From Lytechinus pictus (taxonomy: Eukaryota): 64,000 bases of DNA. The first letter of the stretch is position 1; every line of letters begins with the position of its first letter. The position numbers and the translations under genes are program-made. Shown here one piece after another: positions 33,784 to 64,000 of the stretch. Location: NCBI RefSeq assembly GCF_037042905.1, contig NC_087250.1, positions 13,766,001-13,830,000 on the forward strand. Direction: 5' to 3'. Below the pieces are notes generated by a model. The model made no database searches. It saw only the letters and a program-made list of their open reading frames with translations, and had not been told where the DNA came from.

Positions 33784-35044
33784 AGCCTGGAGCAGTGGAG
33801 GCTTCTGCCAGTTCTGGGGAGCACTTTGCCCCGGGGACCAGTCCGCGACACGACGTCTTTAGACAGTGTTCGGGCTGCCGCAGTAAGGGAGCACTCATCC
33901 TACGAACGAGGAGTAAAGTCATCTACTCTACGTAGGCTTACTCCCCATGAAGCCTGGGACACTAAGGCCCTTACTTAGGGCCAAGGCATAACTTGTAATG
34001 TTACTAAAAGTCTAAATACTAGTCATGCACGTACGGCCACAAAACCTGAAACTTTCGGCTTTCGCCCCCGAGATTTCTACTTTCCCTCTAAAAAAGATCT
34101 AAGTTAGGCCTAGCCCTAATTTCCTAAATCATGTATCATGTACGGTACATGGCCATGGGGTTCAACTTCATTTCCGAAATTTCTGCGATATCGATTTCAT
34201 TTTTAAAGAAGAATTCATTAAATAATAAAAAAACGATAAAAATGTTATGAAAAGATGGGAAGAGCTTACGTTACGGCTGTGTTTACGTCACCATCTTGAT
34301 TTCTTTGTCTTCCGCTTGGCGACAGCACGCAAACCGCGCCGTTTGCATGCAAAATATGTTTTTTCGATTTAGAATTTTAATTAGATGCGCCACTTTTTTC
34401 CCCAAAAAGTAATAAGATGTTAGGTGGTCCATGTCCCACCTATGACTAAATCTCAGAAGTTTTGTTATTATTTTCTATGAGTTTGTAATTGCCCCATTTT
34501 ACCAATTATGCAAATTAGGTGCCCCAAATTAGCATAAATATGCATATCATTTAAGTATAAAGTTAAAGAAAGTCTATAATTAGCCCTCTGCCACATGAAT
34601 AAAAAGGGCCTTTTATTTACTTTCATAAAGATCTAAATCAAGACAGTTGAACTTAGTCACCTCTACTCTAGCTCTCTAAGTCTCTTATCGTATGTGTTGG
34701 TGTGTGTGCACTCATTGTGAACAATTATAATGGGAGTTGATGAAATAAACGGCAGTGAATGGACTGGTGACTTAACCAGGATAATGCGACATAAAAAGTA
34801 TGAGAATCAGAATGCCCATAAGTTTTTGCTGTGAAAACTGAAAGACAGGAAAAAAAACAGAATCCATTCCAGTCACCAGTCTGCATTCGTTAAATCTAAC
34901 ATTAGATCTTTAAGTATAACGTTATTCAAACGTGATTAATGTTAGACTTTAGAGTCGAGAACTTGTGTTTCCCGTTAGATAATTTGTGTCTTTTTAAAAA
35001 ATTCTTTTCCTCATCCTCAGGAGCCTGAAAATAGTAGAGTCACC

Positions 35045-35186
35045 ATGAGTCTGCCAAAGGCAAAGGTGGATAGTTATTCAGATATCCAGGTTCATTTCAC
35101 AGCCAAGGATTGGGCAAAGATCAGCAATTATGAAAGAATTTGTATCAAGAACATCAAAGAAAACTATGAGATGATGAGAGAAGTTG
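35045..35186 (+). CDS. Gene 1 coding exon 1: ancestral (PRDM9/SSX-type) KRAB-A box
   Basis: Acceptor TTTTCCTCATCCTCAG| at 35020, CACCATG start, MSLPKAKVDSYSDIQVHFTAKDWAKISNYERICIKNIKENYEMMREV-G|GTAAGT. Matches the PRDM9 pattern F.DI..YF...EW..M...EK..Y.NVK.NY..L..LG, with a phase-1 donor at the Gly. Confidence 0.85.
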
Positions 35187-39100: not shown

Positions 39101-39740
39101 CGCGCGCGTAATGCAAATTTGAATGGACGCGCATTCCCGTATTATTGGTCGTAAGAGGCTGAATGAGGTATCAAATTAATCAGAAGATAATGAACAATGG
39201 AAAGACATGAAAGAAATGATGACTCGAAGATGCATAACGATGGTAGGTGCAAGAACGCGCACGCATACCTGTGCGCGCGCAAATTCTTGACATGCTCAAA
39301 ATGACCAGAAACGTACCCAAACTTGACCACGGTCGATTTGGGGAAATTTAAAATTTTGACGCGCGCGTACGTGCGCGTCGTGACCTTTGCATGACCTCTG
39401 ATGATATGTCCTGATGACCTGTCACCTGAACTTGATATGATGCAAATATGGATGATTTTTGATGATTAGTTGCGATGATATGATCAATCATTTAATTTTA
39501 CAAAATGGCGCCTAGATGACGTCATCATGATTTGATAACCTTGAAAAGTTTCCATTCCCATGTCCATAATGATGCCCATACATGACATGAAAATCAAGGA
39601 AATTGACATGCCCGATTTTGAGATAGAGGTGGACAAAGATTTGGCAATAAAAATAAAGAAAATTCTGACGAATATAATAGGTGATCTGTCATCTTAATGA
39701 CAGACCACCTAAAAAGGACCAAAAAAAAAAAAAAAAAAAA

Positions 39741-39815
39741 GGGGGGTCCAGCGAGGTTTGAACCACCGAACCCTGGTATACCAGTCAGGTGTGTTATCCA
39801 GTCGGCCACAGTGTG
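39741..39815 (-). pseudogene. tRNA-derived (SINE-head-like) segment; copies at 40901-40974 and 43750-43823
   Basis: A-box-like TGGCCGACTGG and B-box-like GGTTCAAACC at tRNA spacing, followed by T20 or more. Acceptor and T stems pair poorly. Confidence 0.5.
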
Positions 39816-43478: not shown

Positions 43479-44924
43479 ATGATATGATCAATCATTTAAT
43501 TTTACAAAATGGCGCCTAGATGACGTCATCATGATTTGATAACCTTGAAAAGTTTCCATTCCCATGTCCATAATGATGCCCATACATGACATGAAAATCA
43601 AGGAAATTGACATGCCCGATTTTGAGATAGAGGTGGACAAAGATTTGGCAATAAAAATAAAGAAAATTCTGACGAATATAATAGGTGATCTGTCATCTTA
43701 ATGACAGACCACCTAAAAAGGACCAAAAAAAAAAAAAAAAAAAAAAAAAGGGGGTCCAGCGAGGTTTGAACCACCGAACCCTGGTATACCAGTCAGGTGT
43801 GTTATCCAGTCGGCCACAGTGTGTTCGACAAGCACAGAGAGCAAAATAGGAAACATATTGTCAACTTGACATTGAATGTACATTCTTGCAATTCCAAATT
43901 GGCATGATGACAAAACTCTACAAATTCTAGTTTTGAGAATAGTACAAGCTTTAAAATGAAACAGTGGAGATATTGTCTAAAGGATACATTCTAAGCTAAA
44001 ACATATTGAAAATTTGGCGAGAACAGACCAAGATTTACGGAATTAAAATCAATTTAAATGACTGTGGTGACATCATGAAACAGAAAACACTTGTTCTTAG
44101 TTCCGACGCCATTTTGATGACGTCACGATGTAATTAAGAGTCAAATGTGGCATGAAATCATATCTCCTATTCATACTCTATTCGAATATGAAAAGAAAAA
44201 TTGGGGTCAACGGACTCCCTGAAGAGCTACAGTGAATTTTATATAGGCATATTTTAGCCCATTTACGCGCGCGTAATGCAAATTTGAATGGACGCGCATT
44301 CCCGTATTATTGGTCGTAAGAGGCTGAATGAGGTATCAAATTAATCAGAAGATAATGAACAATGGAAAGACATGAAAGAAATGATGACTCGAAGATGCAT
44401 AACGATGGTAGGTGCAAGAACGCGCACGCATACCTGTGCGCGCGCAAATTCTTGACATGCTCAAAATGACCAGAAACGTACCCAAACTTGACCACGGTCG
44501 ATTTGGGGAAATTTAAAATTTTGACGCGCGCGTACGTGCGCGTCGTGACCTTTGCATGACCTCTGATGATATGTCCTGATGACCTGTCACCTGAACTTGA
44601 TATGATGCAAATATGGATGATTTTTGATGATTAGTTGCGATGATATGATCAATCATTTAATTTTACAAAATGGCGCCTAGATGACGTCATCATGATTTGA
44701 TAACCTTGAAAAGTTTCCATTCCCATGTCCATAATGATGCCCATACATGACATGAAAATCAAGGAAATTGACATGCCCGATTTTGAGATAGAGGTGGACA
44801 AAGATTTGGCAATAAAAATAAAGAAAATTCTGACGAATATAATAGGTGATCTGTCATCTTAATGACAGACCACCTAATAAAAACATGCTTACCTGTGTGG
44901 TATCAGTTGGAAAATTGATCATCT

Positions 44925-45644: not shown

Positions 45645-45734
45645 GATTACAGGTCAGTCCACCAATGTTCATGCGACATGGCGATGGAAAAGCGACACAG
45701 GTGGTAGAAGAAAGCGATGAGATGACTACAAGAG
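45645..45734 (+). CDS. Gene 1 coding exon 2: KRAB-B-like / post-KRAB segment
   Basis: Pyrimidine tract plus AAAG|, (G)LQVSPPMFMRHGDGKATQVVEESDEMTTR-G|GTTTGT, 90 nt, phase 1-1. Resembles PRDM9 GL....P.FM followed by an acidic ..DSDEEW.P segment. Paralogous exons at 59227 and 59875 share the same splice positions. Confidence 0.8.
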
Positions 45735-47616: not shown

Positions 47617-50600
47617 ACTCTGGAGTCTATAGATGCACGGACTGTGGATCTCCATATGCTATTCCTCTCATCTTAGCAAGGCATCTCAAGTACAAACATG
47701 GCTTCAACGGGGTCATCTTGCCTGCAGATGGACCAAAGGGAGACATTCTCCAGATCGTCTATGGTAAAATTAAACCCAACGATCCTCCACTACGTGAAAA
47801 GCGATTCATACTCCAGGGGAGCAGCAGAGTAATATTTCAGGATGAATCGTGTGGGGAATTATCCTATCTCGCGATTAAAAATCACGATGGAATGGAGTCC
47901 CTTGCACCTGATAGAAGGTGTAAGGCATTTGACGATGATCATCGGCCACAGGCAGAAGAAATGACCCATTCCGGCGAAAATGCTTTGACTCAAGAAACTC
48001 ATCTTGCAGCACATAAACCACTAGAAAGTGATGACCGTCGTGAACGAGAGTATTACGAGGCATTTACTCAAACACATAAACCGATTGAAAGTGATGACCG
48101 TTGTGGACGAGAGCATTGCGAGGCATTTACTCACGAATCTAATAATGTAGCACATAAACCAATTGAAAGTTATGAACGAGAGCATTCTGAGGCACTTGCT
48201 CAAGAATCAAATGATGTATCACAAAGAACAATTGAAAATGATGACCTTCGTGTACGAGAGCATTGTGAGGCATTTACTCAAGAATCTAATGATGCAGCAC
48301 ATAAACCAATTGAAAGTGATGACCATTCTGAACGAGAGGATTGCGAGGCATTTACTCAAGATTCTAATGATGTAGCACATAAACCAATTGAAAGTGATGA
48401 ACGAGAGCATTCTGAGGCATTTACTCAAGAATCTAATGATGTATCACAAAAAACAATTGAAAATGACAACCTACATGAACGAGAGCATTGCGAGGCATTT
48501 ACTCAAGAATCTAATGATGCAGCACATAAACCAATTGAAAGTGAAGGCCATTGTGGTCATGAGCAATGTTGGAAGACCGACAGTGATACAGGTCCGTCCA
48601 GTAGACGTGCGCAAATCCGTAAGAAGCCGTGTTTTTGTGATCTGTGTGGTAAGGGCTTCTATGACGGAGCAAATTTGAAGAGGCATAAACGAATCCATAC
48701 AGGTGAAAAACCGTATGAATGTAAACAGTGCGGGAAGAAATTTAGGGATAATAGTTCTCTTAATAGACATACACGAATCCATACGGGTGAGAAGCCCCAT
48801 GTTTGCGATCAATGTGGTAAGGCATTTATTGAAAAATATACTCTTACACTACATACGCGTATCCATACAGGTGAGAAGCCCTATGTATGTGATCAGTGTG
48901 GTAATTTGTTTACTAGTGTACGAGATCTAACAACACATGAACGAGTCCATACAGGTCAGAGGCCCCATGTATGTGATCAGTGTGGTAAGGAATTTTCTCA
49001 GCAATATGATCTCTCACAGCACAAACAAATCCATTTAGGTGAAAAGCCGTTTGTATGTCGCCAATGTGGTAAGGCATACACGAGTAAAATTAATCTGGAA
49101 TCACATAAGAAAATACATAAGAATCTGAAATCACATAAGAAAATGCATAAGAATCTGAAATCACATAAGAAAATGCATAAGAGTGAAAAGAAGTCACATG
49201 CAGGTCAATGTGGTAAGTCCATCATTACAAAATTTAATTTTAGATTAAATAAAATTACCCATACAGATGAGAAACCCCATGTATGTGACCAATGTGGCAA
49301 TTCATATACTAATGTACAAGATCTCACAACACATAAACGAATCCATACAGTTGAGAAACCCGATGCATCTGATCAACATGGTAAAGCATTTAATCAAGCG
49401 CATCATCTAGAAAAACCTAAGAAAGTCCACACAGGTGAGAAGCTCTATGTGTGTGATCAGTGTGGTAAGCAATTTAAAAACGCGAGTGCTCTATCAATAC
49501 ATGAAAAAATCCATACAGGTGAGAAATCATTTGCATGTGATCATTGCGGTAAAGTATTCAATCGACTGCATTTCCTCACAAGACATAAACAAATCCATAC
49601 AGGTGTGAAGCCCTATGTATGTGATCAATGTGGTAAAGCATTTAATGATAACACCAATTTGGGGAGGCATAAACAAATCCATACAGGTGTGAAGCCCTAT
49701 GTATGTGATCAATGTGGAAGGGCATTTAACGATTCTAGTAACCTCAAGAAACATAGAAAAACTCATAGACCTAAGCAGCTTCATCAAACACATCGTCCAA
49801 ACGTACATAAGCAAGTCCATACAGGTGAGAAGCCCTATGTATGTGATCAGTGTGGTAAGGCATTTAGTCAAGCACATTACCTAACAAACCATAAGAAAAT
49901 CCACACAGGTGAGAAGCTCCATGTATGTGATCAGTGTGGCAAGGCATTTAATCAACCTTACTATCTCAAAAGACATAAACGAAGGCATACAGGTCAAAGG
50001 CCCCATTTGTGTGATCAATGTGGTAAGGCATTTAGTGATACACGTTACCTCCGTCTACACAAACAAATGCATACAGGTGAGAAGCCTTTTGTATGTGATG
50101 AGTGTGGTAAGGCATTTTATCGGGAATATAGTCTAATAAGGCATAAACTAATTCATTCGGGTCAGAGTCCACATGTATGTGATGACTGTGGTAAAGCATT
50201 TACTCATGCAAGAATTCTAAAGGCGCATAAACGAACCCATACAGGTGAGAAGCCTTTTGTATGTGATCATTGTGGTAAGGCGTTTGGTCAAGTATCCCAT
50301 CTCACAACGCATAAACGAATCCATACAGGTGAGAAACCCTATGTGTGTGAGGAATGCGGTGAGGCATTTACTTACACTATCAGTCTCAAAACTCATAAAC
50401 AAATCCACACAGGAGAGACACCCTATGTATGCGATCAATGTGGTAATGCATATCGTCACAAAAGTACTCTCACAATTCATAAAAGAACTCATACAGGTGA
50501 GAAACGCTATGTATGTGATCAATGTGGTAAGACATTTACTCAATCTGCCCATCTCAAAAGACATTTACTCATCCATACAGGTGAGAAGCCTTATGTATGT

Positions 50601-50786
50601 GACCAATGTGGTAAGGAATTTAATAAATCTGGCAATCTCAAATCACATAAAAGAATACATACAGGTGAGAAGCCATATGTATGTGATCAATGTGGTAAGG
50701 CATTTAGTCAATCCTGTAATCTAACAAAACATAAACAGACCCATGCGGGAGGCAAACCCTATGTAAATTTGTTGTTATCATTGTGA
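47617..50786 (+). CDS. Gene 1 last exon: early C2H2 finger, acidic repeat, 22 intact and 2 degenerate tandem C2H2 fingers
   Basis: Acceptor TTTTTTTCCCTTTTTAAAATAG| at 47616. The phase-1 join gives D-SGVYRCTDCGSPYAIPLILARHLKYKH. TGEKPY-type linkers, TGA stop at 50784-50786. Confidence 0.93.
47980..48570 (+). repeat. Coding minisatellite of 21-26-aa acidic units (AFTQESND.AHKPIESDD..EREHCE)
   Basis: Eight units. Units 3-5 recur as 6-8 at a 225-bp offset. Confidence 0.9.
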
Positions 50787-51087
50787 GAAATTAAGCTAAT
50801 TTCACAGGAAATATGAACAGTATATTGCAAGTTGAAATCTGTTAAGCTCAGTAATTGTTTCCTGAATACTCCCTAAGTGGAAAATCAAATGTATAAAATA
50901 CTTTTCACTATCATGAATGCTATTGGCTCTATGAAGTGGACCCCTGATGAAAATGATACAATTTTTTTCCAGTTCAATGATTACATGCTGTGGAATGACA
51001 ATAAAATCTCTTCCTTCTGTGGATTTGGGATTGGTATCTGAGGAACAAAGGTGTTGATATAGCAATTACTTTGTTCAAGCTCCCTTT

Positions 51088-51168
51088 AATAAATAATATA
51101 GATTTTTATTCCCTGTAGCTATTTGGCTTTTTAAACTGAGCAAATAGGTGTTATGTTTTGACAATAAA
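51088..51168 (+). terminator. Candidate polyadenylation signals of gene 1
   Basis: AATAAA at 51088-51093 and 51163-51168, 0.3-0.4 kb after the stop. AT-rich context lowers specificity. Confidence 0.3.
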
Positions 51169-51509
51169 ATTGAGATGCAATATCTATTTATATTAAGTGT
51201 TTTGAACAATGTCCTGCTTTGGGCATAGTGCAAATGCATAGAACAGATTCTAACGGCCTACTTTTGGAGAGAGAGAAAGGCGAAGAAAGAAAAGATTTTG
51301 ATTTAGATTTGTTTGTGTTTGCCTACCCTCACAGCATTACAAGTAAAAAACAATTTATTAAATGTATCCCAATTCAATATACTCTTGGGTATTTCTGTTG
51401 AAAGCTTTTTAAGCTATGACATATTGCTTTCTTTGCAGTCTAGGAGGGACCATAACTTCCTAATAAGTATAATGTAGACCTGTTCTATAGTGAGAGGAGA
51501 ACCAACTCC

Positions 51510-52042
51510 TTAAAGGTAAAGTAAAATGTTGATTTGAATAAATAGAGAAAATCCAACTAGCATAATGCTGAAAACTTCATCAAAATTGGATGTAAAATGG
51601 GAAAGTTATGACATTTTAAAGTTTCGCTTATTTTTTACAAAACAGTGATATGCACAACTCAGTGACATGCAAATGAGACAGGGGATGACATCCCTCACTA
51701 TTTATTTTGTTTTATATTGTTTGAATTATACAATCTTTCAATTTTTACAGATATGGCAATAAGGACCAACTTGACTGAACCATATAATATTAAACTATGC
51801 TAATTCCATGTGTTCAGGGAGGAATTAATCGTTTCACTTGACAATGAGAAAATTAGAATATTTCACATTTTATATAATAAAATACAAAATAAATAGTGAG
51901 TGGATGACGTCATCAGTCTCCTCATTTGCATACCGACCAGGATGTGCATATAACTGTCTTATTTCACATCCAATTTTGATGAAATTTTCAGTGTTATGCT
52001 TGTTGGATTTTTTTCTCTTTTTATTCAAATCAACTTTTTGTT
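51510..52042. mobile_element. Kolobok-like MITE
   Basis: TTAA|AGG ... CCT|TTAA. Inverted AGCATAATGCTGAAAACTTCATCAAAATTGGATG / CATCCAATTTTGATGAAATTTTCAGTGTTATGCT. Confidence 0.7.
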
Positions 52043-52136
52043 TGGGTGGACTTGTCCTTTAAAAAAAAAAGGGATTTTACTTCCAGCACATACATAGACA
52101 ATAAACCCCTATTCCCAATATGATATGTGCTGTTAA

Positions 52137-52733
52137 AGGGGAATCCAACCCAAATAAACACTTGTTTTTATAAGGAAAAGAAAAATCAGACAAGTTGATA
52201 GGTGAAAGTTTGAACAATATTGGACAAACAACAAGAAAGTTATGAATTTTTAAAAGTTGTAAATATTGGTAATCACTATACCCATGGAGACTTCAAATTG
52301 GTCGCATATGGGATGTCATAGTGATGTAAGGCAAGGACTACCCTACTCTTCCATGTACTCCAATACATATTATGGCTAAAATGTCATTTTTTCCAAAGGT
52401 TTTATTTCAAGTTATATTTTTCTTTCATGAGGACATAAAACAATATACTACCTGGATTATATTTAGATTACTGCCCCAGGGGAATGGGTACTTAGGAGAA
52501 AACCACAAATCCCTGATAAGGTACATGGCCTATGGGAAAGTTGTCCTTGCCCCTTGTCATAATTTACTTACCCAGTTGCTAATTTGAAATCTACATACTA
52601 TTAGTGATCTCAATTGTAAACCAGCTATAACTTTCTTATTGCCTGTCCGATTCCTTTACAACTTTCACCATTCTGTTTAAATTATTTTTCTCCTTCCCAA
52701 CACAACATTTTATGGCCAAGGCTGGATTCCCCT
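52137..52733. mobile_element. Kolobok-like MITE with TTAA TSD
   Basis: TTAA|AGGGGAATCCAACC ... GGCTGGATTCCCCT|TTAA. Confidence 0.85.
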
Positions 52734-52959
52734 TTAATGACCAAATTCCCCACTAGGTTTTCATGTTTTATTTGCTTGCGATGAATGTATTATATTGTTT
52801 ACGTGTAGATGTATGTATGGACTTAAGTGCTTTGATGCGCTGTTTATACAATGTCTATTTTGGAGTGGAATAAATCAATATTTAACCTCGAAATCTTGTC
52901 ATTGGTATTGAGTGAGGTCCGTAACAGAGAGAACAAATGTTAACATTTTTCTGAATGCA

Positions 52960-53265
52960 AGAGGGAAAGAGAGAGAGAGAGGGGGCCGGGAGTAGGGCCC
53001 TGGGTAGGCTAGGGGGATGGGAGAGATTGGTCTTTGTAGAGACAGGCTGGAGAGGGGGAGGGGGAGGGAGTGGAAAAAAGGTAGAGTTGGAGGAATGGGG
53101 AAGAGGGAGATTTACAGATCATGGGTGAACCCCGAGGTATAGGCCAGCTACATATGTATATGGAGACGAGGTGGGGAAAGAGGGAGATAGAGTTAATATA
53201 GAGGAAATATAAAGTAGGGTTTGAGAATGGGAGAGAAATCGATGCATAAAGAGATAACAAGAGAG
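52960..53265. repeat. GA/G-rich low-complexity tract
   Basis: Purine-rich degenerate repeats. Confidence 0.7.
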
Positions 53266-53642
53266 AGTTGCTGATGTGGTAAGTAGACAGATAAAGAAGA
53301 TGTTGAAAAAAAAATGTTCATCTTCCATAATACACAGTGAGAAATGACTTTACCTCACTTTAGAAAGAAAAAAGACGTGTTTCAGCTACATATGCTGAAA
53401 AGTACGTTTCCCGCTTGCTTTGCTCCTTTTCATGGCTTATATATTTGCATGGTCAATGGAATTTGTAATTATATAGCCATTTTGAAAAAAATCATGAATA
53501 TGAGTTCTAACGAAAGAAAACTGTTTTATGTACGGGTGGTACGTAGTATGCACAGACAGCATTTCATGTGGGGGTGAGGGGGGAATTTTCAGTTCAATTT
53601 ATTACTAGATAACCCCCCCCCCCTGCACACACACCCACACAT

Positions 53643-53883
53643 CAGGGTTTGGATCATACATTCCTATTAAATTACATTCCAGAGATGATCCAGCTACTAT
53701 ATAGTTATACCAACTTATTACTTCTAATTAAAATTACAATAACCTGCTTAAGCTCGATCCCCCTCGATCATGCACGACCAATGAAAAATTTTCAAGTTGA
53801 TTATGCTGGTAAGTATAGCTGGATCATCTCTGGAATGTAATTAGGAATGTATTTGGAATATGTAATTGAGCCCAATTACCCTG
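53643..53883. mobile_element. Hairpin MITE
   Basis: CAGGGT ... ACCCTG termini, AATTACATTCCAGAGATGATCCAGCTA inverted at about 53816-53842. Confidence 0.65.
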
Positions 53884-54099
53884 CCACACATCCACCCACA
53901 CCCGTACCGTCTCACACACACACACACGCACCCTCACTCTTTCTTCGCACACACACACGTACACGCGCTACGCTAACCCACGTCATCAGCTTGAATAAAC
54001 ATAAACACACGCGTACTGCTGTCTCTCCACCGTACCCACTTACGTAATGAAGCTCTCATTGTATTACATCAATACATGTGTATACCGTATACCCCCAAG

Positions 54100-54491
54100 G
54101 CTAGATGTTGCCCTAAATTGCCAGATTGTGAATCATTAGTCATCAAATATGACTTCTGGTAAGTTGCAATTGAATTTGACTTGAAGCTAGTCTCTACATT
54201 AACTTTAGATACCGTATTCCCCTTCTTTTAATTGCCTTTAATATACGCAGCGGTACCGGTACGGTACTTCCGGTATACTCATCATTTTCATCGGAGCCCG
54301 AGCGGCCGCCTGGCGGGCAGCAAGTCCGTAGGAGGTACACTACTATTTAAGCCGCGCCGCTGGGCCGTTTTTTCTTCGCTATTTTGGAAAATGGAATGGA
54401 AATCGATTTTGTTAAGACAATTTGAATCTTAAAGAAAAAAAAGCAAGGACAAAATGTTCACGAAACAAAACTTAGATTGGTTGCAAACTTG
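54100..54491 (+). promoter_or_regulatory. CpG-rich putative 5' end of gene 2
   Basis: CpG cluster 54245-54370, ACTTCCGGT ETS-like motif at 54266-54274, donors CTG|GTAAGT (54159) and TTG|GTAATT (54492). ATG ACT TCT G (54149-54158) is phase-compatible with exon 59227. Confidence 0.4.
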
Positions 54492-56604
54492 GTAATTTGT
54501 TTGTTGATGCATGATCCATTTTTCGCTTACGGCAGTTTGTTGTCATGGTTGTAGGCCTATATATTTTTTTTTCCTTTTGCCCTTCAAGTTTTGGACAAGC
54601 ATAGCTTTTTAAGGATATTGGTTTTCAATACTTGTGAAAAAAAAGGAATATATGTTTAAAAATGAAAAAATAAAAATAAAAAATATAGAAAAATGTGATA
54701 TTTTATTTAAATTCACAAATATCGCAAGAAATGAATTACGTTGGGAAAAAAAATGAGGAAAACTAATTGTATATTCGAAAATACTCATGCAACAACAATA
54801 TGCTGATACATATTGATTATTGTATTGATATACATGTTTACTGCGGCAGCCCGAACACGTACTTGTCTAAAGACGTCGTGTCGAGGTCCCCGGGGCAATA
54901 TACATGTATACTATTTGTGCTTTTGCAACTAACAGTCAGATGGCCACTGGTAATAGTTAATACTGATTTGAATAATTCTTATTTCTCTTCGAAAGAAATA
55001 TCGAAGTCGAAATATACATTTTTTTTTCATTCTTTGAAATCGTCTGTTAATTAGGGACGACCGCTATAAAAGAAAGTATTAATTACTTAATACATGTAGA
55101 TTGGGTTTGGACATTATTTGGCAGTTCTGCTGATTGTTGCAAAAGTAATGACTTATCGATATTACTGTGAAGAGTTGAAATTTAAGGTTCCTTCATTATT
55201 TTTTTTTTTCCTCTTGAATTTTTGGCCTGTTAAAAAAAAATCATGCTAGAAAGAAAACATGAATTTAAACTTGAAAACTTGGAGTGTATATTGAAAAAAT
55301 GAGGACATTTTTAAATGAAGAGGGAATCTTATGTAACAGTAAATTTTGCTGGGTTTATTTATTTAATCTGTACTCTTACATTTGGCTTTCCATACTTTAT
55401 TGTTTACATTCAACTTATTTCCATTCCAACTCGTCTCATCCTTCTTTCCATCCTCACAATCCACATACATTGTCATGATCTCATCTTTCATTCCATCTCC
55501 ACAATACTCACATAGCAGCACAGGTTCATTGCATTTCATTCTTTCATTCAGTTTCCCCTCAGTCATGCTTCCTGGTTTTCCATTAGCTTTCCACTCCACA
55601 TGGTCTTATTGTTTAATTCTCATTAGGATTCAGTTTAACTCATGATCACCCTTCTCTATTCTCTGATTAGTTCTTATTTTTAAATAGGGTTAGTTCATTT
55701 TATAGTTCATACCATTTTCCTTGTATTTGATTGGTTGATTTCTATGATTATCCAATGTGGGTACATTGGCAGAACTTCCCAGAAGATTGCATTAGAAAGT
55801 AAAGTCAGTGCTGATCTGGACTTCATCGTGTTAAGTTCTAATTTATTCTGTGTTCACCCTATCTTCAGTTTAATAATTTTAGTTTAATTAAAGTAAGGAG
55901 AGCTTTGGAGATTGAATTTACAGGAGAGCATAGGAGACTGAAGTGCAAGAGTTTATGATTTTGGAGTGTACAAATGGTCATGTTACAGTATTCTGAAAAT
56001 TGTCTTAACTTTTCTTGTAAGTCAGCAAAATAACAGCTCACTAAAATTCTCTTAAATTGGTATTCTGAAAATTGTCTAAAAAAATCTAAGTAAGGATTTC
56101 CCCATTTTTATCTCTGACACGCCCAATATTTCATCATCAACCAATCAAGCTTGTTTTTAGTTATATGCTTAGGTCTACCAATAGAAGCATCTCTTCTGAA
56201 AAATAATGAAGCGTAATTTCCTTGCGCCCCGACGCTTATGCTTGTGCGCTTCTGTGCTAAAAATACACGTGCCGTGGCTCTTCTCAAAGATTTTATTTTC
56301 TCTGAAAAGATTCATCGTCTCGAAAACAAATTTTTAATTGCTGAAAAGTCTACCAATCCGTCGTTATAATGTCTTTGGAATGTCTCCTTTTGTAAAACAT
56401 GATGTTCTTGCGGGATGCAGCAAGAAACAATTATTGCAGACGGACAAATATCGCATCCAACAATAAGTTACAATAGCCCCCTACCTCTTGTAAATTTTCT
56501 TGTATTTTGCAAAGAAGTTAACAACGCAAAGATAAGAGAATTTTCAGAATACCTTTTATCTCGATATGCAAAGGGATATTTATGGTGTAATCTTTTCCAA
56601 TCAG

Positions 56605-56741
56605 GGTCCCGTAACACGAAGGTTAGCAATTAATCTTTAATAAGTCTTGATCAATCATGATTGATTGTACATTGTAGTCAATGGAATCAATCGCAGAAAA
56701 ATGTTCTACAATCATTGCTAAGTTTTGTGTTACGGGCCCCA
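56605..56741. mobile_element. Short hairpin MITE (family of 35203-35355)
   Basis: CCCGTAACACGAAGGTTAGCAAT ... ATTGCTAAGTTTTGTGTTACGGG. Confidence 0.7.
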
Positions 56742-56837
56742 GATATTATATTACCTTATGATGCAAAGAAGAAGGTCAAAGAAGGTCCGTTATTGTGGAT
56801 TTGGAGAGATTTTGTTGGAGCAATAAAATCCTTCTAG

Positions 56838-57272
56838 CATGGGTGTCGATCGCTGTTCTTGGTTGGGGGGGATGATTGACACAAAAGTTCTTGTGGATGG
56901 GGATCTTTCAACATTACCTCCACTAAAATCACAAGTTAGGACATTTGGGAGTGATTGATATGCATGGTGTTCTTGGAAATTCCTTCATTGTTGTAGTGTA
57001 CTTATATTTCTTTTTTGGAAATTCAATTTGTGTTACAAGTAAGCCTATTCTAAACTCATACGAAAGAAAAAATGACAAATTGTCTGGACCATGTTCATAG
57101 TTTATTGAGCATGATGTATACACAGGGGCGTCGATCCATTTTTCAGATTGGGGAGGGGGGGGGGCAAAATCATGAATCAACGTTCCAAAGGCGCTCGATC
57201 ATACAAAACGAACAAACTCATCCACACACCCCTACACCCCACACACATAGGCCTATATTTTATATATATATA

Positions 57273-57313
<41 letters not shown>

Positions 57314-58679
57314 CTCATGAGAAAGAGACACATATCTCACCCTCACCAACAATGCGAGCGCGAGCTAAAATTTTTTAGTATGACATGAAAACAGGAAAAA
57401 TGTACCTGTTTAGGTTTGTTTGTAGTTACTCATGAAAAGCATAGATACATGTATCTCACCAGAGAGCGAGCTAAAATTTCTTTATATTCTGACGTGAAAG
57501 CTTGATATTCTAAGCATTTTTGGTACCAATGATTAAGATGGGTATCTAGAAGAACAATAGATGCGAGCGCAAAGCGCCAGCTGAAAATGTTGATATTTCG
57601 ATCTGGAAAAAAAGACAGTTTAATGGACGCTTTTAATAAAGAACAAGATATATATCCAACAAAAGATTATTGCAAATCGAAGCGGGAGTTCTTTTGAGGT
57701 ATAGAACTGAAAACGGGACATTCTATTCACCTATTTAATCATGAAAAGTATGGGGTTTTGGTACAGAAATGATGCGAGCGCGAAGCGCGAGCTGAAATTT
57801 TTTATATTCCAATCTGAAAAGCAGACATTTTGAGCACGATTTTAAATCAAAATCGAGTTGGTATCTCAATCTCGCTTGCTGGTTTCAGTGTAGCATTACA
57901 ATCTTATTTTATTTTTTAGTTGCACATGCGGAATTATGGGAGGGGGGGGGCAAAACGATATGTTCCCCCAAATATTTTCATTGGCGGGGCGATCGCCCCC
58001 TGCCCCCCCCCCCCCCCGGATCGACACCTATGTGTATACAACTTCTCTCTTAAATCTAACCCGACTGGCAATATCTTTTTTCTTAATGCATGATGATAAC
58101 ATGCAGATTCGGACCAATTAAGACTAGCACAAATTACAAACTGTGTGGCTTCTCGTGCGCCATCGGGCTTACCGTCATTCCATAGAGCTATTACTGTAAT
58201 AGCTATATGGTAAATCCTTAGACGATTTATCTTGCCACCCTTTTACTCCCGTTTATTTTTCCACCCTTTTGAATTAATTGATTTATTAAAATTAATTTTT
58301 TCACCATTGGTGGGATGGAACACCAAAAGTATTTTTTCGTTGGGGTCCCTTTATGTTATGTGTTAAAAAATATCATATACATAAACATTTCATTCTTTTT
58401 CATCTTGAACCTCCACCCATCTGTTTAATAGTCCTGAAAAAGAATGTTTTTATTTAATAACAATATACACAAATTGCGAGGGAAACAAACTGATTGATGG
58501 CATACTATAATCATCACTATAATCATCATGATCAAACGTTTCATTTTTTCATCATCATTATTATAATGTTTCTACCCTAAATTATTGGGGGGATGATAAT
58601 ACAGGCCATCCCCCCACTTGAAATATTGGGGGGGGGGGGATATATCCCCCCCATCCCCCCCCCGTGATCGACACCCATG
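56838..58679. mobile_element. hAT-type non-autonomous element (outer)
   Basis: TIR CATGGGTGTCGATC ... GATCGACACCCATG, perfect 8-bp TSD CCTTCTAG (56830-56837 / 58680-58687). Confidence 0.9.
57123..58032. mobile_element. hAT-type non-autonomous element nested in a relative
   Basis: TIR CAGGGGCGTCGATCC ... GGATCGACACCTATG, perfect 8-bp TSD TGTATACA (57115-57122 / 58033-58040), internal GCGAGCGCGAAGCGCGAGCT repeats. Confidence 0.9.
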
Positions 58680-59226
58680 CCTTCTAGGCTTCTACATTAT
58701 CTTCGAAGCGCCCTCGATAAAATTCAGTGATCAAACAGTGATAGAAAATAACCGTTTTGTCTTGATTATGGTTGAATTGTGACACTTCATGATTTGACAG
58801 AATATGGTTCGAGAAGAGTTACCTTTCATAGACCCACGTTTGTTAAAGACCTAATTTCACATACATGTATTCTTTGGCATATCCAGGGATGCCAATCGTT
58901 ACAGAATATTTTGAGATAAGAAATTGCAATGAGAATAACCAAACGGCTGAACCAAATGTTGTCCTACGAGACAAAACATGTTCAAATTTTTTCGCTCAGT
59001 CGGGAAGTAAACACTGAATTTACATTACAACACATCTCATTAATATTCCATAAGGGTTGACAACTCTGCATAACACATACATGTAGAATCTTGCATGGGT
59101 CCTTATGATTTTTTTAATAGATTTTTTAGAAAAATCTGCCGCAGTCCTTGATGCATCGTTCCTGTAGTCTTTATTCTTATGCTTGATTAAAACTCTAAAT
59201 TTGCAACACAATTATTTTTGATACAG

Positions 59227-59325
59227 GGTCAAACATCAATCCACCAATGTTCACGCAACATCTGCAAGGAATAAAGATAGAGATCAAAGAGGAAAGTGAT
59301 GATGAGGATGATTACGAGTCAAGAG
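59227..59325 (+). CDS. Gene 2 exon: paralog of the KRAB-B-like exon (copy 1)
   Basis: GATACAG| (G)SNINPPMFTQHLQGIKIEIKEESDDEDDYESR-G |GTTTGT, 99 nt, phase 1-1. Shares CCACCAATGTTCA, GAAAGYGATGA and AAGAG|GTTTGT with 45645-45734. Confidence 0.75.
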
Positions 59326-59575
59326 GTTTGTGAATTTTAAAGTCATTTGGGTATTAAGCCTTGGAGTAAAACTTGAATAATCAATGCATTTGACTCGTTT
59401 ACCAACAATAGGCAAGCAAATACTACTTTTTACACTTTAATATTTCATACCCATGTATTTGCCAGATGTTGATTTCTCATTTGAGACATTCAATTATCGG
59501 AAGTACATGGGTATGAAATTTGTCAACTAATTACCACAAGATAACAAATGAAAAGATAAGTTTATGTTAATGTAC

Positions 59576-59738
59576 CAGGGGAGCGTTTCATCAACATTTT
59601 CATCCGACAAGTTGTCAGATCTGACATCTTTCCTTGATTCTGATTGGCTGAGAGGCAATGTTACTATGGTAACTGTTGGATAAAATGGTACTTGTCAGAT
59701 AAAACGTCCGACAAGTCCTTTCATGAAACGCTCCCCAG
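59576..59738. mobile_element. Hairpin MITE
   Basis: CAGGGGAGCGTTTCAT ... ATGAAACGCTCCCCAG. Confidence 0.8.
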
Positions 59739-59874
59739 ATCTACATATATCTATGATAAAATTGTGGCAACTATCCTTGATTTTAAAGACTTTCTCATGA
59801 ACTGATTGGTTGCAGGAACTATTTTCTTTTACCTTTAAAACTCCAAACTTTCAACACAATTATTTTGGATACAG

Positions 59875-59976
59875 GATTGGAGGTCGGTCCACCGATGTTC
59901 ATGCAACATCTGCAAGAAATAAAGATAAAGATCAAAGAGGAAAGTGATGATGAGGATGAGTACAACAAGTCAAGAG
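59875..59976 (+). CDS. Gene 2 exon: KRAB-B-like exon (copy 2)
   Basis: GATACAG| (G)LEVGPPMFMQHLQEIKIKIKEESDDEDEYNKSR-G |GTTTGT, 102 nt, phase 1-1. Flanking intron sequence is also duplicated. Confidence 0.75.
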
Positions 59977-60272
59977 GTTTGTGAATTTTAAGTCATGTGA
60001 GCATCTTTTGACCCTAGACTTGTGATAAGCATTGTCAATAAATTTTTTTTTTTTGGGGGGGGAAGCAAACTCAAGCCAGGTACCAGCTAGAAATTATTGG
60101 GCCAAACCTGTTTTATCTCAAGCAATTGATGGGCCAGGGAAAGTGAGATATCAACCAAACCATCATAATAATGATAATATGAATTGCAAAAGCACATATT
60201 GTTGATGATCTCAATGCACTTTACATATGGATTTATAATTTATTACATTAGAAATCAATTCATATATTTGAG

Positions 60273-61154
60273 TTTTTGTCTTGCCTGCAGAGCAGAGCGA
60301 GACTATAGGCGTCGCTTTTCCAACGGCAGCGTCGTCGTCCGAAATTAAAATCTTAACCAAGGTTAAGTTTTTGAATGTCATCATAACTTAGAAGGTGTAT
60401 GGACCTTGTTCATGAAACTTGGACATAAGCTTAATCAAGTATTACACTGAACATTCTGCCTGAGTTTCAGGTCACATGACTAATGTCAAAGGTCATTTAG
60501 TGTCAATGAACTGAGACCATGTTGGGGGAATCAATATCAAAATCTTAACCAATGTTCAGTTTTTGAAATGTCCTAACTTTAAAAGTATATAGACCTAGTT
60601 CATAAAACTTAAATATGAGGGTAATAGTGTATCACTGAAGATCCTGCCTGAGTTTCAGGTCACATGATTAAGGTCAAAGGTCACTTGGGGTCAACAAACT
60701 TTGGCCATGTTGGGTTTTTTTGAGGAATTGTCATAACTTTAAAAGTTTATGGATCTAGTTCATGAAACTAGGACATACATGTAAGAGCAGCAATTTATCG
60801 CTGAATACCCTGTGCGCATTTCAGGGACATGGCCCAGCTCAAATGTCATTTAAAGGTTAATGACCTCTGGCAGTGTTGGTAGTATGTGTTAAAATTGGCA
60901 TCATAAAGTTTATGGATCTAGCTCATGAAACATTAACGTAAGGGTATTCAAGTATGAATGATTGTTTTGCACATGTCTTGGGTCACATGATCACGGTCAA
61001 AGGTCATTTTGGGTGAATGGACATAATATTTTATTATCATTAGTATTTTGTTCTGTGAATAATTATTCATTAGCTGTTTTCAAAGGCAGCACTGCTGCTA
61101 TATATCATCGAATTGCGTAATGAAGGCGAGACTGCCAAAGGCGCTCCACTTGTT
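60273..61154 (+). mobile_element. Helentron/DINE-like non-autonomous element with internal ~180-bp tandem units
   Basis: TTTT-GTCTTGCCTGCA...GCGAGAC 5' end, AGGCGAGAC...GGCGCTCC-ACTTGTT 3' end, repeated GTCACATGA..TCAAAGGTCA units. Confidence 0.65.
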
Positions 61155-61203
61155 TTAAATTACAATATTATTCTACTTTATACTAGATAAGTGTAATCTC
61201 TTA

Positions 61204-61585
61204 GGCCCGAATTCACAAAGGTGGTTTTGAAAACCCACGGTTGAATCCATATTTTATGCAGATTTCCTGTATAAATGACGCTTAATTTAGCGCGTATTGT
61301 ATGTCCAATGCAGATGCATGATTTTGTCACAGTGCGCCAAATTGATGTCTGTTACCATGGTTAGATACACTATTTTATTCATGAGTCCTAGAGCTGTTTT
61401 TAAGCGTATCTAACCATGGTAACAGGCGTAAATTTGGCGCACTGTGACAAAAGCGCGCATCAGCACTGGACATTTTTTATACACGCACCCGATATGCGCT
61501 AAATTAAGCTTCATTTTTACAGGAAATCTGCATAAACCATGGACTCAACCGTGGGTTTTCAAAACCACTTTTGTGAATTCGGGCC
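61204..61585. mobile_element. PIF/Harbinger-type MITE
   Basis: TTA|GGCCCGAATTCACAAA ... TTTGTGAATTCGGGCC|TTA: long inverted arms and a 3-bp TTA TSD. Confidence 0.88.
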
Positions 61586-62003
61586 TTATTATCTGAAAAC
61601 ACTTTCTTAATTCCTGTAGAGAACTCATATCTCGGCAAATGAAAGTCGCTAATTTTTTCAAAACTGTCACATCTAGCATTTTCCTGAGCTTTCCTAATTA
61701 AAAAAAAAAACTTGTTTCCAATATTACTCTACTTATTACTAACTAGGGTGTAAAGCTCTTATTGTCTGAAAACAGCTCCCTAAATCCTGTAGATAACTCT
61801 ATCTAGATGAATGAACTTGCTACTTGTGTCAAAACCGTAAAATTAAGCATTTCCCTAAATTCCCTCAATTTCTTCTCTTTAACTTTGAGGTTCAAGGTTT
61901 TAACACCCCCTCGATGATATTCTTGTTTGGTAGTGGGGTAGGCATTAGTTTCAATTTTGCATGGTAGGGAATTCATCATGTTTAACAATTTGTTTTGTTT
62001 CAG

Positions 62004-62083
62004 AATCACCCTGTTCAACAATGGATGATCAGCAGGACAGCCATCAAAATGAAAATGAGATACATGAAGAGATTCTAAAACCG
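62004..62083 (+). CDS. Gene 2 candidate acidic linker exon
   Basis: TTTGTTTTGTTTCAG| (E)SPCSTMDDQQDSHQNENEIHEEILKP |GTAAGT. Strong splice sites, and the phase-1 entry matches the upstream exons. Confidence 0.6.
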
Positions 62084-63965: not shown

Positions 63966-64000
63966 TATATATATTCTCAAATTACTCATTTCATGATTGG

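Follow-up and report, generated by a model that had tools for sequence, protein, structure and literature searches.

The window analysed here, a 64,000-nucleotide stretch of Lytechinus pictus DNA (NC_087250.1, positions 13,766,001 to 13,830,000 of the forward strand), contains a zinc-finger gene (gene 1) followed by two small exons that resemble each other and exon 2 of gene 1. This raises the question of whether these exons belong to a second gene (gene 2) and, if so, where that gene starts and ends, what it encodes, and how two versions of one exon would be used. For comparison, gene 1 has, all on the plus strand, a KRAB-A exon at 35021..35186 (ATG at 35045; tblastn E 6.5e-17, family HMM E 6.8e-31; Pfam KRAB 11.9 bits, below threshold), a single KRAB-B-like exon 2 at 45645..45734 (90 nt, phase 1-1), and a terminal exon at 47617..50786 that codes for a zinc knuckle, internal 69/78-nt repeats and 22 C2H2 fingers.

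Twin KRAB-B-like exons in gene 2

Exon 2a (59227..59325, plus strand, 99 nt, phase 1-1) and exon 2b (59875..59976, plus strand, 102 nt, phase 1-1) each have a sole open frame, which enters and exits in phase 1. Both are ancestral KRAB-B-like; exon 2b (GLEVGPPMFMQHLQEIKIKIKEESDDEDEYNKSR) is the copy at the ancestral position, and exon 2a, which reads GSNINPPMFT..., is divergent at conserved positions. An earlier note on this DNA described the twins as homologues of gene 1 exon 2 with the same splice positions and duplicated intron flanks, a description that the alignments bear out. Specifically, gene 1 exon 2 matches the twins at 69-71% over 103-117 nt (E 1e-7 to 5e-7), and the units 59187-59349 and 59835-59999 match each other at 86.1% over 166 nt (E 2e-50), a likeness that takes in ~40 nt of intron upstream and ~25 nt downstream of the exon. 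The junctions are identical, with ...gatacag/G on the 5' side and ...AAGTCAAGAG/gtttgtgaat on the 3' side (slashes mark splice junctions). The PxxFM motif, which Lorenz et al. 2022 (PMC8835667) name ancestral KRAB-B, reads PPMFM in exon 2b and PPMFT in exon 2a. This supports the view that the twin exons encode the ancestral KRAB-B segment that comes after KRAB-A in PRDM9-type proteins.

The closest paralog of gene 2, located on contig C10, has the same exon set and intact splice sites, with a single exon 2. A MITE-like inverted-repeat mobile element that lies between the twins (59552..59745; 40/40 scored genome candidates, of 5146, match at 81-96%) is absent from this C10 paralog, where the sequences flanking the insertion are contiguous. 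The intron between the twins also holds a short inverted repeat at 59442..59519 (38-nt arms, 76% complementary, 2 nt apart).

The downstream exons and reading frame

The exon that the earlier note placed at 62004, in a phase compatible with the twins, is an 80-nt acidic linker (exon 3, 62004..62083, plus strand, cag/...CCG/gtaagt) that is entered in phase 1 and left in phase 0. The intron before it contains a repeat element (60290..61160) with ~150-nt tandem units inside it; a second copy of the element lies at 67093-68117 of the extension, and the C10 locus matches it at two places. From the last window bases before exon 4 (63970..64000, plus strand) gene 2 runs on past the window, with exon 4 at L009:76-607 (extension 64076-64607, plus strand) and a terminal zinc-finger exon at L009:4129-7715 (extension 68129-71715, plus strand). 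Exon 4 encodes many acidic residues as well as QSGD-type repeats, and its matches are urchin PRDM9-like and family proteins. The terminal exon has 1194 open codons and 36 C2H2 fingers (36 zf-C2H2 stretches in L009:4128-7709), and its zinc knuckle region is present with the cysteines replaced (YSSKYRGS). All five donors and all five acceptors of gene 2 are canonical, and each of the four splice combinations gives one open frame (1469, 1435, 1436 and 1402 codons). Gene 2 is a real and apparently intact sea-urchin zinc-finger gene that descends from the recombination gene PRDM9.

Searches for KRAB-A and SET

The earlier note saw no KRAB-A upstream of the twins and proposed a profile search for a degenerate one; three profile searches returned neither an exon nor a relic. 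A family HMM made from 19 KRAB-A exons, which scores the gene 1 exon at E 6.8e-31, was run on 3375 six-frame pieces, and its best match in 50.8-59.3 kb spanned 9 residues at E 1.7; a DNA KRAB-A profile had the gene 1 exon as its only match (E 2e-47); and at E<=1 Pfam KRAB matched none of the 112 plus-strand ORF pieces from 50877-59330. A modern KRAB-A above the Pfam KRAB threshold was also looked for, and no gene 2 piece gave a KRAB match. Note that the KRAB-A-bearing relatives score 17.4, 15.6 and 11.9 bits with Pfam KRAB, all under the 20.4-bit cut-off.

The sequence beyond the window, where the earlier note would have looked for a SET domain or a finger array, has the 36-finger array and no SET domain. 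When P0004 was used as a tblastn query, its SET part had no match throughout the 104-kb extension, and 0/60 genome PF21549 matches fall within C6:13.77-13.87 Mb. Gene 2 lacks a PR/SET domain and is therefore not a PRDM9. The arrangement that the earlier note set against its own reading, a normal KRAB-A exon with a complete PRDM9 downstream, is not what these searches found, as neither KRAB-A nor SET was detected. Pfam SSXRD at E<=5 had no match in exon 4 or in the family proteins P0003, P0001 and P0004.

A candidate mini-exon start

The sequence ATG ACT TCT G (ATGACTTCTG) followed by the donor GTAAGT stands at 54149..54158 on the plus strand, as the earlier note had read it, and would form a first coding exon that exits in phase 1. 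The guess of a mini-exon at this place is strongly supported by a unique island conserved in the C10 paralog. Specifically, 29/31 nt of 54140-54170 are identical to C10:28926569-28926599, which is collinear and ~4.9 kb upstream of the paralog's exon 2, and a 22-mer from the island occurs, with <=2 mismatches, at 2 places in the 812-Mb genome (reversed control 0). The surrounding 53950-54383 is single-copy. The mini-exon is flanked by CpG-rich patches (53850..54400; CpG observed/expected of 1.0-1.95 at 53850-54050 and 1.2-1.7 at 54200-54400) that possibly mark a promoter region; the CpG layout around the C10 mini-exon is similar, and Rfam families and tRNAs had no match in 53850..54400. The most likely start of gene 2 is thus this mini-exon, with 10 coding nt (M-T-S-G) and CpG-rich DNA close by, and use of this start codon is predicted from the sequence. 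The conserved island is short at only 31 nt, and the promoter is putative.

Gene 2 could instead lack a separate start: read-through, or a choice between alternative 3' exons, would join its exons to the KRAB-A exon of gene 1 (35021-35186), and a single KRAB-A would then be shared by two finger arrays. The two genes are on the same strand, no KRAB-A was found between them, and the gene 1 KRAB-A exon exits in phase 1 with G/GTAAGT, as does the mini-exon. However, such a join needs a 24-kb skip across a complete terminal exon, AATAAA signals are present downstream of the gene 1 last exon, and in the C10 paralog the mini-exon is present too, with no KRAB-A within 10.4 kb upstream and no family gene found in 20 kb upstream. 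We therefore regard sharing of the gene 1 exon as extremely unlikely and retain the mini-exon as the likely start.

The C10 paralog and the order of events

The earlier note took gene 2 for a tandem paralog of gene 1. A second same-strand family member does adjoin gene 1, but it is not a recent gene 1 copy; the gene 2 introns align only with the C10 paralog and not with gene 1. Like gene 2, the C10 paralog has no KRAB-A and has lost the knuckle cysteines. The KRAB-A loss that they have in common is therefore older than the exon twinning. The C10 paralog has one KRAB-B exon, which makes copy A (unit 59187..59352, plus strand, the exon flanked by ~40 nt of 5' and ~25 nt of 3' sequence) a gene-specific extra copy. 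The homology of unit A to unit B and to the C10 exon ends at the unit limits, and the flanks of B stay collinear with C10. In addition, exons 2a and 2b share an H at a position that is R in C10 and in other family members, and twinning thus occurred after the split from C10. Remodelling of the N-terminus by exon loss and duplication, as the earlier note proposed, is seen in the absence of KRAB-A and the duplicated KRAB-B exon, but the loss, which C10 shares, came before the twinning.

Between gene 2 and C10, exon 2b is identical at 91/99 nt (dN/dS 0.56) and exon 3 at 62/78 nt (dN/dS 0.29), and dN/dS is 0.33 for the start of the last exon and 0.70 for exon 4, with few sites behind each of these values. 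These values bear on the idea that gene 2 is a pseudogene, either silent or dying, which as a truncated copy of a family gene would have neither KRAB-A nor promoter. This would fit the missing KRAB-A and lost knuckle cysteines, a last intron with repeat insertions and with partial, decayed duplicates of the beginning of the terminal exon, and the fact that no protein model of gene 2 or the C10 paralog was found in a 5.8-billion-protein collection with exon 4, the terminal exon and exon 2b as queries. In that collection exon 4 had four matches (best 48%), exon 2b had one at 69%, and the best for the terminal exon was 51% identity among the 120 matches listed. Without a protein model, gene 2 may be unannotated, called a pseudogene, or silent. 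We nevertheless consider a pseudogene improbable, as the spliced 1469-codon frame is stop-free with all splice sites intact, the C10 paralog holds the same architecture with intact frames, dN/dS relative to C10 is 0.29-0.70, and the start-codon/donor island is unique and conserved.

Exon 2a evolves faster than exon 2b

Exons 2a and 2b are identical at 83/96 nt, with 11 non-synonymous and 2 synonymous differences and a 3-nt deletion; the resulting dN/dS of ~1.15 gives no purifying-selection signal for 2a. Copy A is the faster evolving of the two, with ~10 private changes plus the 3-nt deletion as opposed to 4 private changes in 2b. Nine differences from 2b cluster in the first 16 nt of 2a, two family-conserved residues are gone from it (L to S, and FM to FT in PxxFM), and its conservation is not above that of its own intron flanks. 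These features could mean that exon 2b alone works and that 2a is a decaying duplicate, ignored or rarely included, which would leave a single KRAB-B segment. We hold this to be possible but doubtful. Exon 2a retains both splice sites, a purine-rich core and an open frame, the 5'-end clustering of its changes could equally be diversification, and in relatives all 3-4 KRAB-B copies are intact, with all three present in both RefSeq isoforms of one of them.

Exon multiplication in the echinoid SET-less family

Gene 2 belongs to an echinoid SET-less PRDM9-derived zinc-finger family that is defined in this analysis by its chain of exons: a KRAB-B exon of ~102 nt in phase 1-1, a linker, a DDDGN/QSGD exon, and an exon with knuckle and C2H2 fingers, with no SET. 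Gene 2 fits this chain, and the RefSeq models P0003 and P0125/P0126 share it. In P0003, KRAB-A together with the exon-2 segment can be aligned to residues 28-94 of reindeer PRDM9 (34% over 67 residues, pairwise E 1e-7). A KRAB-B query against this genome revealed 2-4 tandem copies, 0.5-3 kb apart, at 7/18 family loci. Doubling is thus no peculiarity of gene 2. At one locus (L033) 4/4 KRAB-B copies are 102-nt exons with the same junctions, and L. variegatus XP_041466760 and XP_041466761 have KRAB-A and three tandem KRAB-B units in both isoforms. Judged from these gene structures, exon multiplication is a family-wide habit.

How the twin exons would be used

Mutually exclusive use, which the earlier note also raised, would give two isoforms with different KRAB-B variants. 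The twins are adjacent, alike in length (99 and 102 nt) and phase, and differ in their N-terminal residues. However, 99 and 102 are each divisible by 3, which means that transcripts with both exons or with none stay in frame and that nonsense-mediated decay would impose no choice, and the 549-nt intron between the twins leaves no steric block. The best duplexes of the shared flanks are at -16.9 to -22.4 kcal/mol versus shuffled best means of -19.5 to -21.1, which in this low-power test is no docking-type complementarity above shuffles, and the L. variegatus RefSeq isoforms have all three KRAB-B units together. Mutual exclusion is thus very unlikely. The family-standard splice sites and lengths divisible by 3 indicate that the twins are most likely co-included or skipped independently. 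Joint inclusion appears the likeliest use, because 7/18 loci are multi-copy and the L. variegatus gene carries three units in both isoforms.

We think it probable that gene 2 is an intact SET-less PRDM9-derived gene with a mini-exon start, both KRAB-B exons and 36 fingers, in a KRAB-A-less sub-lineage with C10. These two genes would make up a sub-lineage that lost the KRAB-A exon, and exon 2a would have been born in gene 2's own lineage when a 166-nt piece with its splice signals was copied a few hundred bases upstream. We infer that gene 2 is transcribed and that splicing would join the mini-exon (54149-54158), 2a, 2b, linker exon 3, the acidic/QSGD exon and the final exon, the last encoding the degenerate zinc knuckle and 36 C2H2 fingers of a full product of 1469 residues. 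By joint inclusion or independent cassette skipping the product would have two tandem KRAB-B segments with no KRAB-A, and the protein would presumably be a sequence-specific DNA binder with an altered N-terminal partner-binding module.

The KRAB-B exon combines P-x-x-F-M with a strand-like I-K-I-E-I-K stretch and an S-D-D-E-D-E acidic run whose serine is of the casein-kinase-2 type; it may resemble SUMO-interaction or similar short linear motifs. Speculatively, this ~33-residue exon might be a self-contained, copy-number-tunable motif, used in 1-4 copies across an urchin SET-less radiation of at least 30 genes and KRAB-A-free in gene 2 and C10. If true, urchins would have an independent KRAB-zinc-finger-like radiation in which the KRAB-B motif was repeatedly multiplied by exon duplication.

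Comparison with known systems

Gene 2 is like PRDM9 (Meisetz) and its sea-urchin orthologues (S. purpuratus W4YDS2, XP_030849319 and others in PMC8835667 Table S1; P0004) in having an ancestral KRAB-B, G-L-x-V-x-P-x-x-F-M followed by an acidic run, a 'DDDGN...' exon with QSGD-type repeats, the same exon phases, and a zinc knuckle 'SPYAIPLILARHL' region directly before a long C2H2 array. Unlike PRDM9, it is missing PR/SET and KRAB-A, has lost the knuckle cysteines, and has KRAB-B twice. Gene 2 also lacks the W, placed behind the acidic run, that Lorenz et al. (PMC8835667) describe as conserved in PRDM9 orthologues. The SSXRD column is empty for 5/5 S. purpuratus PRDM9 entries shown in PMC8835667 Table S1.

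Truncated PRDM9 paralogues share with gene 2 a birth-and-death via loss of whole 5' exons, including loss of the first KRAB exon only. Baker and colleagues reportedly described vertebrate partial PRDM9 copies in 2017. Cnidarian 'kXSZ' PRDM9 paralogues are missing the first KRAB exon, and the variants described with them retain SET (bioRxiv 10.64898/2026.09.07.749791). These truncated-PRDM9 surveys were anchored on the SET domain. In gene 2, by contrast, SET is gone, half of KRAB and the array are left, and the retained KRAB exon is multiplied.

A KRAB-type N-terminus with a long fast-evolving C2H2 array is common to gene 2, tetrapod KRAB zinc-finger proteins and coelacanth ancestral-KRAB proteins. 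KRAB zinc-finger genes are described as clustered, rapidly duplicating and thought to be derived from a PRDM9-like ancestor, and the ancestral-type KRAB of human PRDM9 as giving no repression and no TRIM28 binding in assays (PMC8835667). Unlike the tetrapod and coelacanth proteins, the gene 2 family would be an independent echinoid radiation with an ancestral-type KRAB, of which gene 2 lacks the A half. SSX proteins have the ancestral KRAB type in common with the family, but they have no zinc fingers; in gene 2, KRAB-A is absent and SSXRD was not detected. The nearest structural neighbours of the family N-terminus in the ESM Atlas are SSX2-like and PRDM9-like clusters (TM 0.31 and 0.29), weak leads only.

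The L. variegatus 'zinc finger protein 2 homolog' (XP_041466760.1/XP_041466761.1; P0126/P0125) differs from gene 2 in keeping KRAB-A and intact knuckle cysteines, both lost in gene 2, and in having three KRAB-B units and 8-9 fingers as opposed to two units and 36 fingers; its best match in this genome, at 60%, is not a close orthologue. Like gene 2, it is SET-less with tandem KRAB-B units, of which the second and third share 69% identity with the exon-2b query, and the two genes have the QSGD-repeat exon, knuckle and fingers in common.

Results

The twin exons of gene 2 lie at 59227-59325 (exon 2a, 99 nt) and 59875-59976 (exon 2b, 102 nt), have the same edges (...gatacag/G and ...AAGTCAAGAG/gtttgtgaat, slash at the splice junction) and show phase 1 in, phase 1 out as their sole open frame. 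The repeated unit measures 166 nt, comprising the exon together with intron on either side (~40 nt upstream, 25 nt downstream), and its two copies are 86.1% identical (E 2e-50), while each twin matches the gene 1 exon at 45645-45734 at 69-71% (E 1e-7 to 5e-7). The shared splice positions, duplicated flanks and homology to gene 1 exon 2 described in the earlier note are thus accurate and far above chance, and the phase-compatible exon that it placed at 62004 is borne out by our reading of the next exon, exon 3, at 62004-62083. An assembly artefact or a haplotype copy can be dismissed as the source of the twins, since the copies are 14% apart, share only these 166 nt and have unlike flanks.

Three L. 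pictus proteins (P0001-P0003) show what the twins encode. Each has a KRAB-A-like stretch (…DVQVYFTAKEWA…NYEMMNKV) that is directly followed by a second segment, 'GLQVNPPMFMQRQ.EIK.EIKEENDSEDEE', to which the twin exons correspond. In a BLASTP alignment residues 44-109 of P0003 (XP_063957034.1) match residues 28-94 of reindeer PRDM9 with 34% identity (pairwise E 1e-7), covering both KRAB-A and the segment after it. The segment following the ancestral KRAB-A is the "ancestral KRAB-B" of Lorenz et al. (2022, PMC8835667), with PxxFM as its hallmark, and at this position the sequence is PPMFM in exon 2b and PPMFT in exon 2a. Given this PxxFM-type segment and the PRDM9 alignment of P0003, the label "KRAB-B-like" previously given to the twins is correct if ancestral KRAB-B is meant.

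Upstream of the twins no KRAB-A exon was found, as had been noted by eye, nor was any relic of one detected with a protein HMM, a DNA HMM or Pfam KRAB. Both HMMs were built from 19 family KRAB-A exons, 18 of them genomic and the other that of gene 1 (35021-35186, ATG at 35045, donor G/GTAAGT), and the protein HMM was run on 3375 six-frame pieces of the extended sequence from 30 to 75 kb and of the locus of a gene 2 relative on contig C10. It detects the gene 1 KRAB-A exon at E 6.8e-31, and its best match in 50.8-59.3 kb has an E of 1.7 over 9 residues. For the DNA HMM the gene 1 KRAB-A exon is the sole match (E 2e-47), and 0 of 112 plus-strand ORF pieces (at least 25 residues) from 50877-59330 match Pfam KRAB at E<=1. 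Note that family KRAB-A sequences score 17.4, 15.6 and 11.9 bits against Pfam KRAB, below its cut-off of 20.4, which fits the ancestral type.

The 10-kb intron of gene 1 between the KRAB-A exon and exon 2 contains, at 39031-44913, four to five copies of a ~1157-bp unit that are 98-100% identical, each with the same 107-codon minus-strand ORF. The last exon has coding repeats of 69/78 nt (…HKPIESDD…EAFTQESND…, 48073-48584) ahead of 22 fingers, and counterparts of gene 2 exons 3 and 4 are absent from gene 1. Minisatellites lie upstream of the gene at 14527-15218, 25475-25963, 27874-28685 and 31483-33017 (periods 145, 35, 70/77 and ~70-285 nt).

Comparison with C10:28.926-28.936 Mb revealed that the introns of gene 2 align there at 70-88% over hundreds of bases and are collinear all the way between exon 2 and the last exon, whereas between gene 1 and gene 2 DNA exon 2 alone aligns, which argues that the C10 gene is the closest relative of gene 2. 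The C10 gene has the same exon chain, its splice sites all intact, with one exon 2 and a 499-codon last exon, and it has lost the knuckle cysteines as gene 2 has. No KRAB-A was found within 10.4 kb upstream of it, and the loss of KRAB-A therefore predates the divergence of gene 2 and the C10 gene.

Upstream of exon 2 the sole island shared by the two loci is 54140-54170, which is identical to C10:28926569-28926599 at 29 of 31 positions and lies 5.0 kb from exon 2 in gene 2 and 4.9 kb from it in C10. The island reads TCATCAAAT-ATGACTTCTG-GTAAGTTGCAAT, that is, the mini-exon (54149-54158) and donor that the earlier note had proposed as a direct splice into the twins. Its central 22-mer, with 2 mismatches allowed, occurs at only 2 places in 812 Mb (reversed control, 0), the sequence around the mini-exon (53950-54383) is single-copy, and CpG-rich patches flank the island at both loci. 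Since the mini-exon exits in phase 1 at G/GTAAGT, just as the KRAB-A exon does, it could be an in-frame substitute for that exon. This unique collinear island, donor included, provides good, though indirect, evidence that the candidate mini-exon (M-T-S-G…) is a real first coding exon. A relic of the 3' tip of a KRAB-A exon was considered as another origin for it and set aside, there being no convincing similarity and no match to the DNA profile at that place. The CpG-rich stretch at 54.24-54.37 kb, which has a T run at its end, was likewise considered as a small RNA gene and rejected, as scanning the window for Rfam families and tRNAs gave no hits. Another match to C10 lies at 52806-53440, ~1 kb ahead of the mini-exon; its partner at 68-80% is C10:28936248-28937905, just downstream of the last exon of the C10 gene, and the two could be copies of one repeat or the remnant of an earlier tandem layout.

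In a three-way alignment the flanks of exon 2b are collinear with C10 on both sides, whereas the homology of exon 2a extends only ~40 nt upstream and 25-30 nt downstream of the exon, to the limits of the unit, indicating that 2b occupies the ancestral place and that 2a is the copy of 166 nt that was added. The sequence between the twins is mostly later insertion. It holds a short inverted repeat (59442-59519) and a mobile inverted-repeat element (~59552-59745) that has many genome copies at 81-96% and is absent in C10, where the sequences flanking its site are contiguous. In the motif 'MF.QH' both twins have H where the C10 gene and other family members have R, which assigns the duplication to the lineage of gene 2 itself. 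After the duplication exon 2a acquired ~10 changes private to it plus a 3-nt deletion, with 9 of its differences within the first 16 nt, and exon 2b acquired 4 private changes. The twins differ from each other by 11 non-synonymous and 2 synonymous changes (dN/dS about 1.15), and the ratios for gene 2 against the C10 gene are 0.56 (exon 2b), 0.29 (exon 3), 0.70 (exon 4) and 0.33 (start of the last exon); these values come from few sites, and they point to constraint on gene 2 and to relaxed or diversifying change in 2a. No feature that would enforce mutual exclusion of the twins was found, all combinations being in frame and the intron between them measuring 549 nt, and in a crude test their shared flanks had no complementary pre-mRNA partner beyond those of shuffled queries. 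Joint inclusion, or use as independent cassettes, would be the default expectation.

Downstream, in the 40 kb that extend the window to 104 kb (numbering continued), gene 2 proceeds to exon 4 at 64076-64607 (phase 0 to 1), which encodes an acidic 'DSDDDGNTIDDAYH' start and then QSGD/TQSCDQK-type repeats, and to a final exon at 68129-71715, which opens with a 'SPYAIPLILARHL' zinc-knuckle region and has 1194 open codons with 36 C2H2 fingers. All splice sites are canonical (5/5 donors, 5/5 acceptors) and 4/4 combinations of the twin exons keep a single frame (1469, 1435, 1436 and 1402 codons). The earlier note had left a SET domain or a finger array to be looked for here, with a complete PRDM9, alongside a normal KRAB-A exon, as one outcome that would count against its reading. 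The finger array is present, and no PR/SET domain was found: the SET part of P0004, an S. purpuratus PRDM9-like protein, has no match in the joined 104 kb, and 0 of the best 60 genome matches to Pfam PF21549 fall in C6:13.77-13.87 Mb. Gene 2 does not, therefore, constitute a complete PRDM9.

For neither gene 2 nor the C10 gene did queries with exon 4, the terminal exon and the exon-2b ORF find a model in the protein collection. With longer proteins the exon 4 query had 4 matches (two L. pictus THAP-domain proteins, P0003 and P0004) and the exon-2b ORF had 1, while the terminal exon had 5957 at E<=1e-50, with no urchin protein among the 120 listed and a best identity of 51% among them. At L009:2824-3032 (extension 66824-67032), in its last intron, gene 2 has two decayed and incomplete duplicates of the beginning of the last exon, in one of which (66942-67032) the knuckle cysteines lost in the real last exon are kept, together with an acceptor-like ttag and a stop after ~43 codons. 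A ~1 kb repeat element (L009:3093-4117), also present at 60290-61160 in the window and twice at the C10 locus, separates these copies from the real last exon. Farther downstream lie a 322-codon minus-strand ORF that is transposase-like by eye (78199-79164) and plus-strand ORFs that read, also by eye, like LINE endonuclease and reverse transcriptase (88076-92487).

Additional analysis with P0003 as query gave 124 exon-level genome matches among the best candidates scored, located on C6 (8.2-8.5, 13.8-14.45, 15.07, 19.2-19.5 and 20.17 Mb) and also on C21, C17 and C10. Among these best candidates only three family loci, all on C6 (8.186, 15.075 and 20.174 Mb), have adjoining PR/SET matches. At 15.07 and 20.17 Mb the KRAB-A exon resembles the S. 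purpuratus PRDM9 orthologues given by PMC8835667 in its Table S1, where 5/5 S. purpuratus entries are of that same PRDM9 type. The remaining loci appear to form a SET-less radiation, as supported by SET-less RefSeq models in two species (P0003 in L. pictus; XP_041466761.1 and XP_041466760.1 in L. variegatus). Two of the L. pictus predicted proteins, P0001 and P0002 (LOC129282884 and LOC129282883), combine an N-terminal THAP domain (E 9.5e-15) with the family KRAB-A, KRAB-B and QSGD-repeat region and seem to have no finger array. Contig C8 (7.4-7.7, 18.0, 22.7-24.7 and 27.6-39.1 Mb) holds >40 of the best 60 PF21549 matches and 0 of the P0003 family matches scored, and may represent a separate large expansion of PR-domain genes.

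Multiplied KRAB-B exons recur in this family. A query of three KRAB-B units found at least 32 exon copies at at least 18 loci, a lower bound because the divergent exon of gene 1 was missed; 11 loci have one copy and 7 have 2-4 copies spaced 0.5-3 kb apart, namely six in the 19.2-19.5 Mb cluster and gene 2. Two of the family loci (L033 and L034) have four copies, and at L033 4/4 are 102-nt exons of the form cag/GATTACAG…AAGTCAAGAG/gtttgtgaatgt. Both L. variegatus isoforms encode KRAB-A and then three KRAB-B units, their sole difference being 9 residues elsewhere; where RefSeq gene models exist, the KRAB-B copies are used together. No close orthologue of this three-unit gene was found in the L. 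pictus genome, the best of the 64 candidates scored (of 1310) reaching 60%. Exon multiplication is thus habitual in this family, and gene 2 represents at least its second independent occurrence.

Discussion

As read from its exons, the product of gene 2 would be a multi-finger DNA-binding protein with a reduced N-terminus, from which the methyltransferase and the two-helix KRAB-A half are gone and in which the short PxxFM-plus-acidic segment persists in two copies. The ancestral KRAB of human PRDM9 showed neither repression nor TRIM28 binding in the assays of PMC8835667, so that no TRIM28-type silencing role should be assumed for this product. The retention of the segment without KRAB-A in two genes, and its multiplication up to four-fold elsewhere, suggests that it may be a separable, dosage-sensitive contact motif. 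The family offers natural variants with which each half of the ancestral KRAB could be tested, as KRAB-A occurs with one or with three or four KRAB-B units, and KRAB-B occurs alone in one or two copies. For annotation, gene predictors miss structures of the kind proposed here, with a first coding exon of 10 nt and twinned exons of 100 nt. The chief value of gene 2 is as an entry point to this family.

Baker et al. reportedly described, in 2017, exon-wise truncation of vertebrate PRDM9 copies. Cnidarian PRDM9 copies are also truncated exon-wise, including loss of the first KRAB exon alone (bioRxiv 10.64898/2026.09.07.749791); the truncated variants listed there retain SET. Vervoort et al. (2015, PMC4760075) put the number of Prdm genes in S. 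purpuratus at 18, and SET-less derivatives are not treated in the parts of that study that we draw on. A full-text literature search found neither a KRAB zinc-finger family without SET in echinoids nor multiplied KRAB-B exons described. The vertebrate KRAB zinc-finger genes are thought to be rooted in PRDM9 through loss of SET. The echinoid family would have taken this same SET-loss step independently.
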